Source: an uncultured Chitinophaga sp.
Lineage (GTDB): Bacteria > Bacteroidota > Bacteroidia > UKL13-3
DNA: 64,000 nucleotides
Reading direction: 5' to 3'
NCBI GenBank assembly: GCA_964603255.1
Contig: CAZRVA010000001.1
Span: 1,177 to 65,176 of the forward strand
In this document: piece by piece, positions 47,996-51,796 of the stretch
Layout: each line of letters begins with the position of its first letter
Numbering within the stretch: position 1 is the stretch's first letter
The notes under the pieces: generated by a model
Database searches by the model: none
Told to the model about the DNA's origin: nothing
The model's input: only the letters and a program-made list of their open reading frames with translations
Made by a program: the position numbers and the translations under genes

Positions 47996-48060
47996 AACTT
48001 TTTATCGTGTACTACAAATATGGGTATAAAAGATTAGCTTGCTCATAAATTGATATTAAA

Positions 48061-48300
48061 ATGAGTAACAACTGGATTGAAAAAGACAATAAACTAAGTA
48101 AAACCTACAAGTTTGACACGTTTATGGATGCTATTAATTGGATGGGTAAAGCCGCTGTTGTTATTGAAGCGTTTAATCATCACCCGGAATGGAGTAACGT
48201 GTATAATAAGGTGCATGTGGTTTTACGAACACACGATGCCGGATACATTGTTACCAATAAAGACAGAAAGTTAGCACAACTACTTGATGAAGTAGAATAA
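48061..48300 (+). CDS. Pterin-4a-carbinolamine dehydratase
   Basis: The 79-aa protein with W...HHPEW..V...V....TH motif is PCD/DCoH-like. Confidence 0.75.
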   Translation: MSNNWIEKDNKLSKTYKFDTFMDAINWMGKAAVVIEAFNHHPEWSNVYNKVHVVLRTHDAGYIVTNKDRKLAQLLDEVE

Positions 48301-48429
48301 CCCACATAACAAAAAAATTACATCACTCAAGCCCCTATATTTTACAAGGCATACAGCCAATATATTCTTGTTACTAAAAATTTTTGTTGCATTTTATTTT
48401 AGAAATGAATTTGTTTGCACCATCAAAAA

Positions 48430-48519
48430 ATGACAGCAACCAAGACACATATTACTACTAACATGATGCACGCCATGCGAATGCACATGCCTATGTGTTG
48501 CACTGTTCATATGATGTAA
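48430..48519 (+). CDS. Candidate Met/His/Cys-rich leader peptide 1 (29 aa: MTATKTHITTNMMHAMRMHMPMCCTVHMM)
   Basis: ATG..TAA ORF in the 567-nt leader of the metB/C-hom operon. 10 of its 29 codons are Met. The stop codon lies inside the hairpin atgatgt-aatc-acatcat (48511-48528). It is paralogous to the ORF at 48691..48759. Confidence 0.5.
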   Translation: MTATKTHITTNMMHAMRMHMPMCCTVHMM

Positions 48520-48690
48520 TCACATCATCACACACCAAAACTACAAGCGTTTCGAGGTTCGCTTCATTAACTTTGAAAAATCAACACACATTAAAATTAA
48601 ATTGTAAAAGTAGTAGTGAATTTTAGTTTCACCATATCACAGACACGTAAACAAACAAACGAAAATACGTTTGCTGTGGCTGCTTTTGCT

Positions 48691-48759
48691 ATGCACACCA
48701 TGATGTGCATGATGCGTATGCATTGCGTTGCAATGCATCACCAACACTGTTGTTGCTAG
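48691..48759 (+). CDS. Candidate Met/His/Cys-rich leader peptide 2 (22 aa: MHTMMCMMRMHCVAMHHQHCCC)
   Basis: ATG..TAG ORF. 8 of 22 codons are Met and 5 are Cys. It shares the frame and the motif MM.[AM]MRMH with peptide 1, with synonymous differences (CGA/CGT, CAC/CAT). The internal palindrome atgcattgc-gtt-gcaatgcat lies at 48718-48738. Confidence 0.5.
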   Translation: MHTMMCMMRMHCVAMHHQHCCC

Positions 48760-48776
48760 AATACAGGACGTATTCT
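48758..48776 (+). promoter_or_regulatory. Hairpin overlapping the stop codon of leader peptide 2 (candidate attenuator element)
   Basis: Perfect 7-bp stem agaatac-aggac-gtattct. It is not followed by a clear U-tract. Confidence 0.4.
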
Positions 48777-48867
48777 CCAACCCATACAAAAATCTTTAGC
48801 TGGTTTCCGGCACACAATCAATTCAATTAAAATTTAAAGCAGTTGGTGCATACCAACACAACTCGTT

Positions 48868-50055
48868 ATGTCAACATACAAATTAGATACACAAATTATA
48901 CATGATATTCCTGTAGACCAATTAACCGGAGCCATTAGTGTTCCAATCTATCAAACGTCTACTTTTGTGCAAGAAGCACCTGGAGTAAACAAAGGTTTTG
49001 ATTACTCACGCACTAACAACCCAACGCGTGCAACACTAGAACAGCTATTGGCTAAATTGGAGGAAGGTGATGCCGGATTTGCTTTTGCCAGTGGTTTAGC
49101 AGCCATTGATGCGGTGCTTAAACTCTTAAAGTCGGGTGATGAGATTATTGCCTGTGACGATATTTATGGAGGTACATTCCGTATCTTCACGCATATCTAT
49201 GAAAAATTTGGAATAAAAGTAACCTACGTTGATACCACCAATATTGAGAATGTATTAAATGCCATCACAGAAAAAACAAAATTTGTTTGGATTGAAACAC
49301 CAACAAATCCAACGTTAAAAATAAGTGATATACGAGCAATTGCTGCAATCGCTAAAACCGTGGATGCATTGCTTGTTGTTGACAATACTTTCGCTTCACC
49401 TATACTACAACAGCCTATTACTTTAGGTGCGGATGTTGTAATACACAGTGCTACCAAATACCTTGGAGGGCACTCAGATATTATTGCCGGTGCAGTAATT
49501 ACGCGAACAAAAGCATTAAGTGAGCAACTTAAGTTTATTCAAAATTCATCAGGTGGCGTTTTGGGTCCGTTTGATTCATGGTTATTAATTCGTGGTATAG
49601 AAACACTGCCTTTACGCATAAAGAAGCATAGTGAAAACGCTAAAATTATCGCAGATTTTTTGGTAAATCACCCTGCTATTAAAAACCTGTATTACCCCGG
49701 GTTAGCAACACATCCTAACCATGAGGTTGCTGCTAAACAGCAATCTGCATTTGGTAGTGTAATTTCATTTTCACTCAAAACAGATAACATAGCTGCTGCC
49801 GAAAAAGTAGTTACACAAACTAAGTTATTTAAACTGGCCGAAAGTTTAGGTGGTGTTAAAAGTTTAATCTGCCATCCGGCTCAAATGACACATAAATCTA
49901 TACCTTCAATTACAAGGCAAGTAGCGGGTATCAGCGATTCACTCATTCGATTATCAGTTGGGCTGGAGGATGCTGAAGATTTAATCGCGGATTTAAAATT
50001 CGCGTTATCCCAAGTTGTAAATGAGGAGCAACCAGGACAGACATCAGTCAGTTAA
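48868..50055 (+). CDS. PLP-dependent trans-sulfuration enzyme (cystathionine gamma-synthase/beta-lyase family)
   Basis: Cys/Met-metabolism PLP enzyme pattern including the Lys motif SATKYLGGHSD; 395 aa. Confidence 0.85.
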   Translation: MSTYKLDTQIIHDIPVDQLTGAISVPIYQTSTFVQEAPGVNKGFDYSRTNNPTRATLEQLLAKLEEGDAGFAFASGLAAIDAVLKLLKSGDEIIACDDIYGGTFRIFTHIYEKFGIKVTYVDTTNIENVLNAITEKTKFVWIETPTNPTLKISDIRAIAAIAKTVDALLVVDNTFASPILQQPITLGADVVIHSATKYLGGHSDIIAGAVITRTKALSEQLKFIQNSSGGVLGPFDSWLLIRGIETLPLRIKKHSENAKIIADFLVNHPAIKNLYYPGLATHPNHEVAAKQQSAFGSVISFSLKTDNIAAAEKVVTQTKLFKLAESLGGVKSLICHPAQMTHKSIPSITRQVAGISDSLIRLSVGLEDAEDLIADLKFALSQVVNEEQPGQTSVS

Positions 50056-50104
50056 ATAAAAATTTAATAAATAAAATCAGGATAGGAACTATCCAACAAC
50101 AACT

Positions 50105-50539
50105 ATGTACAGCGATAATAACTTAAAAGTAATAACAGAACAAACAACAACACACTCCTTCATTGTATTTCCGGAGGATTTGAATTACGCAGGAACTTTA
50201 TTTGGCGGTAAGGTATTGGCCGAAATGGACTTGACAGCCGCTAAAGCAGCAAGACGTATTTTGTACAATACTTCGTGTAATGGTGCAGTAACTGCAAGCT
50301 TAAATAAAGTTGATTTTAAACGCCCGGCTTTGTTAGGAGATATTATTGAACTTACGGCAACCATTACTCGTTTAGGACGCACATCAATAGATATCTATGT
50401 TCATGTCTCAAAAGAGAATCAATTGGGAGAAATAGAAACCATTTGTGAGGCCTCTTTTGTGTTTGTATCTGTGAAAGACGGTAAGCCTTATCCACACCAA
50501 TGTTTGTTGTTAACAGATAAACCTGAATCCTTAAACTAA
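50105..50539 (+). CDS. Hotdog-fold acyl-CoA thioesterase (YciA-like)
   Basis: FIVFPEDLNYAGTLFGGKVLAEMD... is typical of YciA/4HBT thioesterases. Confidence 0.7.
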   Translation: MYSDNNLKVITEQTTTHSFIVFPEDLNYAGTLFGGKVLAEMDLTAAKAARRILYNTSCNGAVTASLNKVDFKRPALLGDIIELTATITRLGRTSIDIYVHVSKENQLGEIETICEASFVFVSVKDGKPYPHQCLLLTDKPESLN

Positions 50540-50548
50540 CTTAAAATT

Positions 50549-51796
50549 ATGACGACAAATAATACAGCAATAGGACTTTTCGGATTTGGCTGTGTAGGAT
50601 CGGGTTTGTATGAAGTACTTCAACAAAACCCAGCGCTACAGGCACAAATAAAAAAAATAGCAGTAAAGCATCATGATAAAAAACGGAGTTTACCTGCCTC
50701 CTGCTTTACTTTTAACAAAAATGAAATATTGGATGATGAGAGCATCAATGTAATTGTAGAACTTATTGATGATGCGGATGAGGCATTTATTATTGTGAGC
50801 GAGGCCCTGAAAAGAGGTAAACATGTAGTAACTGCCAATAAAAAAATGTTGGCTAATCATTTTCAAACACTAATAGATTTGGCAAAAGAAAATAACGTTT
50901 CTTTATTGTATGAAGCTGCTGTAGGCGGTTCGATACCTATTATTAGGACGTTAGAAGAGTATTATAACAATGATACTTTAACGCAGCTTGATGGGATATT
51001 AAATGGCACAACCAATTACATTTTAACCAAAACACTAAACGAGCAAAAATCTTATGAAGAGGTTTTGAAGGAAGCACAAGCATTGGGTTTTGCCGAAAGC
51101 AATCCAACCATGGACGTACAAGCTTTCGATCCAAAGTTTAAGATTGTGATTTTATTAGCACATGCTTTTGGTGTTATTGTAAAGCCTGAACAACTTTTTA
51201 ATTATGGTATTGAACAGCTAAGTCAGCATGATATTCGTTTTGCCAAACAACGTGATTACGCCATTAAACTGGTAGCATCAGCGGCAATTGTTCATCATAA
51301 AATACAGGCATTTGTATTGCCCAAATTTGTTCCTCAAAACGATTCCTTTTATGGCGTAAACAATGAGTTTAATGCCGTACAAGTTTCTGCAGCTTTTAGT
51401 GATAAACAATTACTAACGGGAAAAGGGGCGGGTAGTTTTCCAACGGCCGCTGCCGTATTATCTGATATTTCGGCATTACGTTACAATTATGCGTATGAGT
51501 ATCATAAGTTGAATAAACACCTGAAACCGGAAATAGACAACAGTGCATTTATACATGTTTATTTGCGCTACGCTAGTAATGATGTATTTGAGGAATTACA
51601 ATTTGAAACTGTAAACGAGGAGTATAGAAGTAAAGGATATAATTACATTATTGGTTCTATTTCGTTACAACAACTTATTGATGCAGATCTACTGAATAGA
51701 CAAGGTGTTTTTGTTGCTGCGATAGAGGAAGTACCACATCAATCTAAAAAGCCTTCAATTGACTCCACTATAAAATTAGCCGAAAGTATCCATTAA
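50549..51796 (+). CDS. hom: Homoserine dehydrogenase
   Basis: NAD-binding IGLFGFGCVGSG, then VTANKKMLANHF, EAAVGGSIPII and LNGTTNYIL, which are homoserine-DH signatures. Confidence 0.8.
   Translation: MTTNNTAIGLFGFGCVGSGLYEVLQQNPALQAQIKKIAVKHHDKKRSLPASCFTFNKNEILDDESINVIVELIDDADEAFIIVSEALKRGKHVVTANKKMLANHFQTLIDLAKENNVSLLYEAAVGGSIPIIRTLEEYYNNDTLTQLDGILNGTTNYILTKTLNEQKSYEEVLKEAQALGFAESNPTMDVQAFDPKFKIVILLAHAFGVIVKPEQLFNYGIEQLSQHDIRFAKQRDYAIKLVASAAIVHHKIQAFVLPKFVPQNDSFYGVNNEFNAVQVSAAFSDKQLLTGKGAGSFPTAAAVLSDISALRYNYAYEYHKLNKHLKPEIDNSAFIHVYLRYASNDVFEELQFETVNEEYRSKGYNYIIGSISLQQLIDADLLNRQGVFVAAIEEVPHQSKKPSIDSTIKLAESIH

Follow-up and report, generated by a model that had tools for sequence, protein, structure and literature searches.

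Tandem methionine-codon-rich leader open reading frames upstream of a metB-like/hom operon in an uncultured Chitinophaga sp.: a likely ribosome-sensed counterpart of the SAM-I riboswitch

The 64,000-nucleotide (nt) stretch of contig CAZRVA010000001.1 of an uncultured Chitinophaga sp. analyzed here (the whole of which is referred to as the window) harbors a gap of 567 nt (48301-48867), flanked on one side by a gene for pterin-4a-carbinolamine dehydratase (48061-48300) and on the other by a three-gene operon (Table 1). Both the length of this gap and the identification of the operon as one encoding a trans-sulfuration enzyme and a homoserine dehydrogenase agree with an earlier description made from the DNA letters alone (here termed the sequence-only reading), Pfam placing a 4HBT thioesterase gene between the two. 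The gap contains two short open reading frames (ORFs), ORF1 and ORF2, packed with methionine codons, and it is considered likely that the 440-nt leader of this metB-like/thioesterase/hom operon comprises two tandem leader-peptide genes in which methionine supplies the regulatory codons and the ribosome acts as the sensor.

Both ORFs were located on the operon strand at the positions previously assigned to them (48430..48519 and 48691..48759), their Met codons numbering 9 of 29 and 7 of 22 rather than the 10 and 8 formerly counted. Of the 578 ORFs in the window which start with ATG and encode 15 or more amino acids, these two have the highest Met content. The GC content previously given (~40%) is corrected to 37.2%. 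The two ORFs had also been described as lying within paralogous segments of ~60 nt which share a reading frame, a proposal which was rejected, as the best ORF1/ORF2 alignment was matched in score by 249 of 500 codon-shuffled versions of ORF2; their resemblance is one of common ATG/CAY/TGY codon content. The argument for selection on translation that had been drawn from synonymous differences between the supposed paralogs falls with it. A weak similarity between positions 48400-48423 and 48611-48635 was marginal, being equaled in 8 of 300 shuffles.

Related loci, defined as those encoding the pyridoxal phosphate (PLP) enzyme of the operon, were collected from genomes, metagenomes, and assemblies and amounted, with the window, to 172 sources (838 kb), among which individual loci are identified below by L numbers. 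A census was made of the leaders for which 250 nt or more of upstream sequence was available, in which S-adenosylmethionine (SAM) riboswitches of class SAM-I were detected using Rfam and subsequently using an nhmmer profile built from the Rfam SAM-I matches. A SAM-I riboswitch was present in 133 sources, tandem Met-rich upstream ORFs (uORFs) in 25, and a poly-Cys uORF variant in 4, with no source possessing neither. The 25 Met-uORF sources are all uncultured Bacteroidota (~74 to 100% protein identity) and carry the tandem uORFs on the operon strand; Met-codon enrichment is kept in all 25, across three leader architectures, while the peptide sequence diverges. The expectation that orthologous leaders would retain Met-rich uORFs was thus borne out in every SAM-I-less locus with upstream sequence besides the four poly-Cys variants. 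Among the 8,194 ORFs of 12 to 45 amino acids found on both strands of all sources, 53 contain at least 5 Met residues and at least 20% Met, and 44 of these 53 are leader uORFs. The genes that follow the leader vary by locus (hom, a metY-like sulfhydrylase, a metX-like acetyltransferase, and often 4HBT) and always belong to the methionine pathway.

In the more distant orthologs (133 of the 172 sources), the SAM-I riboswitch lies 200 to 350 nt upstream of the gene, and across the 172 sources nhmmer detected SAM-I in none of the uORF loci, so that no locus harbors both. This mutual exclusivity at the same position indicates that the uORF leader fills the regulatory slot of the SAM riboswitch. The window itself conformed to this pattern and to the absence of a SAM riboswitch core asserted in the sequence-only reading: Rfam 15 returned no match at the gathering threshold across the whole window, relaxed searches (E ≤ 10) over positions 48250-48920 returned only chance-level small nucleolar RNA (snoRNA) and small RNA (sRNA) matches, and the SAM-I profile did not match the window.

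The reading frames of the uORFs bear several signatures of translation. Across 46 uORFs from 23 leaders, 257 internal ATGs are in frame, compared with 5 and 4 in the other two frames, and the imbalance persists (124 versus 5 and 3) when tandem ATGs are collapsed and 16 non-redundant leaders are considered. With the initiator excluded, Met makes up 24.9% of the pooled uORF residues versus 0.6% of those in neighboring proteins, and 10 of the 12 indels inside uORFs, compared with 19 of 73 outside them, have lengths divisible by three (Fisher P = 2.5e-4). Judged by these signatures, the uORFs are presumably translated. Bacteroidetes promoters follow the consensus TTG / TAnnTTTG, and in alignments A1 and A2 a TTTG is invariant 9 to 14 nt 5' of the ORF1 ATG in every leader (13 nt in the window), which we take to be the -7 element. 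The putative promoter would leave a 5' untranslated region of only ~5 to 12 nt before ORF1, which would consequently be the first reading frame on a nearly leaderless mRNA. A short ORF in the vicinity of the putative transcript 5' end, on the operon strand and upstream of an amino acid biosynthetic operon, is a feature expected of an attenuator. His-rich ORFs on the minus strand (window positions 48394-48510, e.g., MNSATHRHVHSHGVHH...) were considered and discarded as a mirror image, CAT being the complement of ATG; they are not preserved as ORFs in relatives, have no conserved start or downstream gene, and in L012 are broken by a minus-strand stop codon, while both the promoter and the terminators with their U-tracts point along the plus strand.

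The leaders were divided into group A (L005, L011, L012, L083, and L170), group B (including L004), group C (the window, L001, L003, L081, L161, and L162), with L165 and L167 intermediate between B and C, and group D, the poly-Cys sister variant (L013, L014, L084, and L171). Group A uORFs contain plain Met runs (e.g., MNKQTMYMMMMCRLPEGN) with almost no Cys or His. Each of the eight uORFs of L005, L011, L012, and L083 is followed by a canonical terminator, consisting of a GC stem and U7-9 (of the form AAAGCC...GGCUUUUUUU), and the best partner for the terminator 5' arm within the uORF is provided by the last few codons, 4 to 10 codons past the Met run. This antiterminator pairing has a free energy (ΔG) of -5.6 to -14.6, and the truncated transcript folds into the antiterminator in six of the eight uORFs. 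The L170 sequence displays the same terminator/antiterminator layout, and no conserved structure other than these two was found in the group. This is the textbook geometry of an attenuator, present in two successive copies. Stalling at the Met run would leave the antiterminator free, and a ribosome at the stop codon would cover it; the output would be classical transcription attenuation, the repetition of which should sharpen the response.

Groups B and C carry homologous uORFs in which Met is accompanied by His and Cys (..THIS..NRMxxCMRMCC.. and MMMMRMRCS.. / ..MMCMMRMHC..). Orthologs of ORF1 are present in all leaders of both groups, with the motifs ...THI.. and MRM..CC conserved, as well as nucleotide-invariant blocks which include frozen synonymous sites (ATGCGAATG...ATGTGTTGC and ATGATGCGTATGC). 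Met-richness is the sole property that the peptides of groups A, B, and C have in common; their sequence is not conserved in the way anticipated for a functional micropeptide. AUG and CAU are reverse complements, and much of the His in groups B and C is encoded in hairpin arms facing Met codons (e.g., ATGCATTGC/GCAATGCAT); given that group A lacks His enrichment, the His codons are probably there for RNA structure. Cys charging, for its part, may constitute a second input.

The group D leader (L013:1709-1789, L171:409-489, L014:1-30, and L084) is situated ahead of 4HBT, the metB-like gene, and hom and lacks SAM-I. Its promoter-proximal uORF (MIITINN(I/T)HFDNFVLSHHGCCCCCA(R/S); MIITINNTHFDNFVLSHHGCCCCCA(S/R)) ends in GCCCCCAS-stop, with five consecutive Cys codons positioned two codons before a stop codon that lies in a hairpin, and is not enriched in Met, while a second uORF reads MYNSSVISIILFPGN(N/K)HHCCLHL. 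This arrangement suggests Cys-codon sensing for the same operon.

Some observations relate to the starts of the uORFs. An in-frame GTG (48676-48678), located 15 nt 5' of the ORF2 ATG, is kept in group C and replaced by ATG in L162, in which translation from that codon (L162:1325-1408) reads MAAFAMHTMMC...; ORF2 may accordingly start at GTG 48676 instead of ATG 48691. In group B, ORF1 and the metB-like gene both begin with ATGACAAC (L004:2501-2508 and other group B loci), and the corresponding starts in the window are ATGACAGC for ORF1 (48430-48437) and ATGTCAAC for the metB-like gene. Such matching starts may reflect a preferred Bacteroidota initiation context or a leader born by duplication of the 5' end of the gene. 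The spacer between ORF1 and ORF2 in group B also contains a conserved motif, AATCGCATCAC (L004:2230-2241; alignment A2, columns 229-237), complementary to UGAUGCG of the ORF2 Met run, the variants of which (CGCGTCA, CGCATCG, and CGTATCA) all preserve pairing through G-U; this pairing may sequester the ORF2 start.

The whole leader of the window has a predicted folding energy of -106.3 kcal/mol (z = -2.72). Two perfect stop-codon hairpins (48511-48528 and 48758-48776) and a 9-bp palindrome in ORF2 (48718-48726 / 48730-48738) had been noted in the sequence-only reading, and all three were recovered, both hairpins having 7-bp stems, the first of which includes TAA and the second of which overlaps TAG. 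The core of stop hairpin 1 (GATGT/ACATC) is invariant in group C, and equivalent small hairpins of different sequence (TGTGC/GCACA and GTGTA/TACAC) were recognized by eye in group B and the B/C intermediates. Stop hairpin 2, the 5' strand of which holds the TAG stop (48757-59), carries a loop, AGGAC, conserved as C-AGGAN-G. Among the 18 leaders of alignment A3, 94% of the cells of its upper stem are paired, compensatory changes affect five of the seven pairs, and the covariation score (0.369 versus 0.158 for shuffles) was attained by none of 500 shuffles; the lower stem was found by RNAalifold in group B. The C-AGGA-N-G loop (window positions 48764-48768), invariant in 20 of 20 group B and C leaders, resembles either a Shine-Dalgarno (SD) core or a protein-binding loop of the GGA kind, although SD-led initiation is generally not used in this phylum.

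An element of pseudoknot topology, formed by helices X and Y, begins 11 to 27 nt 3' of the ORF1 stop codon. It was the best pseudoknot in an unbiased search of the window leader, with none of 200 shuffles performing as well, and in 13 of 18 leaders of groups B and C the automated search recovered this topology at the equivalent position, represented by nine X and nine Y sequences (variants including TGGTTG/CAACCA, TCGGAT/ATCCGA, TCGTC/GACGA, and TTGCCG/CGGTAA), most of which surpassed their shuffles. The connecting loops in the window are too short to accommodate both full helices together, for which reason the element may instead be bistable. The footprint of a ribosome positioned on the ORF1 stop would end just short of the pseudoknot in group B, in the intermediates between B and C, and in L081. 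Further downstream, in the predicted domain that abuts or buries the ORF2 start, CAAAC/GUUUG covaries in L003 (CAAGC/GCUUG), and the UAAAAGUA/UGCUUUUG pairing is retained, its changes being confined to one side at a time. ORF1 and ORF2 are themselves complementary in their Met regions, RNAalifold pairing GCAUGCG with CGUAUGC in group B and the minimum free energy (MFE) fold of the window pairing both regions. Long-range helices such as that between 48499-505 and 48844-50 were not trusted, chance pairings of AUG- and GU-rich sequence being too numerous.

Table 1. Features of the leader and of the putative regulated operon in the window
Feature	Position	Strand	Details
Putative Bacteroidota-type promoter	48381..48417	+	-33-like TTG in TTTTTGTTGCA (48381-48391); -7-like TTTGTTTG (48410-48417)
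Leader ORF1, MTATKTHITTNMMHAMRMHMPMCCTVHMM	48430..48519	+	29 codons: 9 Met, 4 His, 2 Cys; ends Met-Met-stop
Stop hairpin 1, ATGATGT-aatc-ACATCAT	48511..48528	+	5' arm = last two Met codons and T of TAA; ΔG -5.7
Pseudoknot-topology (or bistable) element, helix X	48545..48578	+	AAGCG 48545-49 / CGCTT 48560-64
Same element, helix Y	48545..48578	+	TTTCGAGGTT 48550-59 / AACTTTGAAA 48569-78
Predicted structured domain abutting/burying ORF2 start	48604..48690	+	In MFE and centroid folds; closing helix ~48604-15 with 48678-90
Hairpins of this domain	within 48604..48690	+	GTGAA/TTCAC (48616-32); CAAACG/CGTTTG (48656-73)
Leader ORF2, MHTMMCMMRMHCVAMHHQHCCC	48691..48759	+	22 codons: 7 Met, 5 His, 5 Cys; ends Cys-Cys-Cys-stop
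ORF2 internal hairpin	48691-48710	+	Contains ATG
ORF2 internal hairpin	48718-48738	+	9-bp stem; loop varies among relatives
Extended stop hairpin 2	48752..48781	+	Lower stem GTTG/CAAC, upper stem AGAATAC/GTATTCT; ΔG -8.8
Hairpin GCTGG-ttt-CCGGC	48799..48811	+	No U-tract after; covaries in L003, L081 (GCTGA/TCAGC)
Hairpin GTTGGT-gcat-ACCAAC	48842..48857	+	Ends 10 nt before operon start codon; covaries in L003 (GTTGGC/GCCAAC)
Operon gene 1: Cys/Met-metabolism (trans-sulfuration-family) PLP enzyme, metB-like	48868-50055	+	Pfam, NCBIfam
Operon gene 2: 4HBT thioesterase	50105-50539	+	Pfam, NCBIfam
Operon gene 3: homoserine dehydrogenase (hom)	50549-51796	+	Pfam, NCBIfam
Putative regulated operon, whole	48868..51796	+	

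It is the output of the leader that sets the window apart from group A. The sequence-only reading had called for mutually exclusive terminator and antiterminator structures, and these were encountered in group A, as described above, with no such pair found in the leader type of the window. Its stop-codon hairpins and X/Y element (the full helices of which are incompatible) are present, and among them no pair tied to an output signal was identified. A search for conserved alternative partners of either arm of stop hairpin 2 found none, the strongest duplexes lying in inconsistent places; in group B, pairing is possible between its 3' arm and the Met run with which ORF2 starts, a possibility not conserved in group C. 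Complementarity between GCAUGAUG (48707-14) and CGUUAUGU (48864-71) is present and shows no covariation. Sequestration of the operon start was also evaluated by partition-function folding of 13 leaders with ribosome masks placed at the ORF2 Met cluster or the ORF2 stop, which did not yield a consistent effect; the pairing partners of the operon start region differ between these leaders. ORF1 is followed by a 25-nt G-free, C-rich stretch, the spacers are predicted to be largely structured, and the C>G skew, considered as a rut signature, is only moderate and decides nothing. Control of read-through, as suggested for the window in the sequence-only reading, would therefore be extrapolated from the homology of the sensor. 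In order of preference, the output may be Rho-dependent termination or polarity, in the manner suggested for the Cys leader peptides without terminators in Actinobacteria (PMC1262725); a translational or mRNA stability effect, comparable to that of mycobacterial polycysteine leaderless short ORFs (sORFs) (bioRxiv 10.1101/834739); or, lastly, weak non-canonical termination.

Several of these findings weigh against a methionine-responsive attenuator in the window. No intrinsic terminator, one of the parts expected of an attenuator, was found in positions 48000-49000 or in the other leaders of groups B and C, even though the same genome possesses strong canonical terminators elsewhere, and masked folding of the 13 leaders did not consistently alter the accessibility of the operon start region. 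Enrichment in groups B and C extends beyond Met to His and Cys codons, and the sister poly-Cys uORF is without Met enrichment, such that the signal sensed may not be methionine alone. As regards translation, the 3-nt periodicity or slippage of ATG repeats could by itself yield in-frame indels. The ORF2 ATG sits in the stem of the 48691-48710 hairpin, and throughout groups B and C the start of ORF2 is enclosed in predicted structure and has no A-rich context, which renders the translation of ORF2 less certain than that of ORF1.

Against these points stand the conservation among orthologs, the exchange with SAM-I, the in-frame ATGs, and the group A terminators, all of which support the Met-responsive leader-peptide interpretation first put forward from the sequence alone. 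Under this interpretation, ribosomes would begin translation at ORF1, very close to the transcript 5' end, and, when charged Met-tRNA is scarce, would stall on the AUG clusters, whereas with plentiful Met-tRNA they would run on to the hairpin-embedded stop codons. A ribosome at either stop codon would have to melt a conserved hairpin, while one held at the Met codons would leave it intact, and ribosome position would in this way set which leader RNA structures form and, ultimately, the level of operon expression. Both stalling as the signal and the direction of the response are presumed from the layout of codons and hairpins. In the subgroup of the window, the output may be Rho-dependent termination or polarity, or another ribosome-dependent remodeling through the post-ORF1 pseudoknot and the stop-codon hairpins. 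The uORF device would thereby take over the task performed by the SAM-I riboswitch of related lineages. A more ambitious version, to which we give less credence than to its negation, holds that this is the first Met-specific leader-peptide control, a natural replacement of SAM-I built on a terminator-less platform (the pseudoknot past the ORF1 stop plus the AGGA-loop hairpin at the ORF2 stop), perhaps with two inputs, in which early Met codons would signal the need for product and the Cys codons adjoining the stops would signal the availability of the sulfur donor.

Other explanations were weighed against leader-peptide control by methionine. The leader might represent a new riboswitch which binds SAM, S-adenosylhomocysteine, or Met, its AUG/CAU/UGC stretches being structural and its ORFs incidental, as could be argued from the several covarying helices of groups B and C, a pseudoknot topology resembling the one seen in certain small classes of SAM riboswitch, the conserved C-AGGAN-G loop, the invariant blocks with their frozen synonymous sites, and the burial of the ORF2 start. 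This is deemed unlikely given that Rfam yields no match even at E ≤ 10, that the pseudoknot, unlike a ligand pocket, has no nucleotides conserved between groups B and C, and that ORF1 starts directly after the putative promoter in every leader; the placement of ATGs (257 in frame versus 9), the frame-keeping indels of the ORFs, and the plain Met runs of group A, the structure of which is confined to terminator and antiterminator, likewise speak for codons rather than an aptamer. The metal-binding micropeptides offered as an alternative in the sequence-only reading, i.e., Met/His/Cys-rich products acting in trans in metal binding or as redox buffers, with their adjacency to the met operon reflecting coincidence or co-expression, fare worse still and appear very improbable. 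The pooled uORF composition (Met 25%, Cys 12%, and His 11%) does resemble metal-binding motifs, and groups B and C retain peptide motifs such as MRMxxCC, but across groups A, B, and C this conservation shrinks to Met-richness, with group A nearly without Cys or His. The element is, moreover, always directly upstream of Met pathway genes on the same strand, SAM-I takes its place in relatives, the group A uORFs are wired to terminator/antiterminator pairs, and no metal-related or peptide-modifying genes were found among the neighboring genes inspected in the window and related loci.

Translated regulatory uORFs might also respond to a different signal, namely, initiator formylmethionyl-tRNA (fMet-tRNA) or one-carbon status, with the numerous AUGs serving as start sites, Cys-tRNA charging, or a metabolite-triggered arrest of the nascent peptide comparable to that of Arabidopsis CGS1 or E. 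coli TnaC. Cys runs indeed adjoin stop codons (CCC-stop in window ORF2 and GCCCCCAS-stop in group D), Arg is conserved inside the Met clusters, synonymous sites are frozen, and groups B and C lack a terminator, as do mycobacterial Cys leader ORFs (PMC1262725; bioRxiv 10.1101/834739). With Met codons as the sole feature common to all 25 leaders, MMMM runs placed in classical attenuator geometry in group A, and no arrest motif conserved across groups, a signal other than methionine is nonetheless considered unlikely.

Comparison with known systems places the leader closest to the classical attenuators (trpL, hisL, leuL, thrL, and pheL, and the Bacteroid-trp leader in Rfam), with which it shares a 5' short ORF packed with codons for the end product and, in the group A relatives, the full terminator/antiterminator geometry. 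It differs from them in the use of Met as the regulatory codon, in having two leader peptides in series, and, in the window type, in the replacement of the intrinsic terminator by a pseudoknot-type element and stop-codon hairpins. Similarity also extends to the mycobacterial polycysteine leaderless sORFs (Ms5788A type) and Actinobacteria Cys leaders, which are likewise amino-acid-specific, near-leaderless uORFs located upstream of sulfur amino acid genes without a terminator hairpin and have Cys runs near the stop, as in window ORF2 and group D. Here, by contrast, Met codons predominate, two uORFs are present, there is no SD sequence to sequester in Bacteroidota, and masked folding gave no consistent sign of a codon tract sequestering the downstream start. 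SD-based initiation is not expected in Bacteroidota. The Actinobacterial Cys leaders have been proposed to act through Rho-dependent termination (PMC1262725), and translational attenuation was demonstrated for Ms5788A (bioRxiv 10.1101/834739).

The LEU element, which precedes leuA in Actinobacteria, is alike in joining a uORF with a run of cognate codons to a conserved pseudoknot or alternative structure and in having no terminator (PMC1262725). It comes from another phylum, responds to another amino acid, and differs in sequence, and its codon run pairs with the SD sequence (PMC1262725), whereas no such base stem is supported here; its authors favored a protein-binding explanation (PMC1262725). 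SAM-I (the S-box) is a direct metabolite-binding aptamer which senses SAM and not tRNA charging, and it has no match in the window. In tnaC and Rho-dependent leader control, a leader peptide is similarly followed by untranslated RNA without an intrinsic terminator, and a ribosome near the stop could control access to the RNA; the sensing proposed here is codon based as opposed to nascent peptide plus free amino acid, and the spacers are largely structured.

Other observations concern the genes of these operons. The PLP enzyme (48868-50055) falls under every NCBIfam equivalog cut-off, its best matches being cystathionine gamma-lyase (CGL)/homocysteine desulfhydrase (534; cut-off, 594) and cystathionine gamma-synthase (CGS) (502; cut-off, 513), so that no exact activity as CGS, cystathionine beta-lyase (CBL), or CGL is assigned to it; it may either consume or produce Cys. 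Source records name it cystathionine beta-lyase, and its true specificity bears on the logic of any Cys-codon input. A 4HBT family thioesterase (with a weak YciA-like match) is kept within Met operons (window positions 50105-50539 and L161 to L171), its gene being located between those for the PLP enzyme and homoserine dehydrogenase or else directly following the leader; the role of the thioesterase in Met synthesis might involve acyl coenzyme A hydrolysis or homoserine acylation chemistry. In the uORF-controlled operon of L169, a peroxiredoxin gene (AhpC-TSA / 1-Cys Prx; L169:2463-3098) is inserted between the metB-like gene and 4HBT plus hom. In some Chitinophagales-type loci, a second SAM-I is located downstream of the metB-like gene (L025:4250-4353 and L096:3252-3351), which points to one riboswitch per gene and not per operon.

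SAM riboswitches, Met T-boxes, or proteins such as MetJ and MetR govern the methionine regulons known so far, and the amino acids for which leader-peptide attenuation is on record are Trp, His, Leu, Thr, Phe, Ile/Val, and, among Actinobacteria, Cys. Full-text literature searches returned no description of a Met-codon leader peptide, and Rfam 15 contains no such family; Vitreschak et al. are said to have predicted, in 2004, Met codons in the thrA leader of Pasteurellales. Hints of leader-peptide attenuation for other amino acids exist in Flavobacteria (PMC9723704). While leader-peptide attenuation is itself known, what would be new here is Met as the regulatory amino acid, the tandem design, and the terminator-less structured platform.

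A sensor based on Met codons is conceptually interesting in that initiation as well as elongation depends on Met-tRNA. The clade constitutes a natural experiment, as the same gene is under SAM-I in 133 relatives and under tandem uORFs in 25, which allows SAM sensing to be compared with the sensing of tRNA charging. The terminator-less variant points to a putative coupling of ribosome position to expression in Bacteroidota, which lack SD-led initiation. Finally, given that these uORFs are overlooked by gene callers and by Rfam, the regulation of methionine genes in these genomes is currently unannotated.

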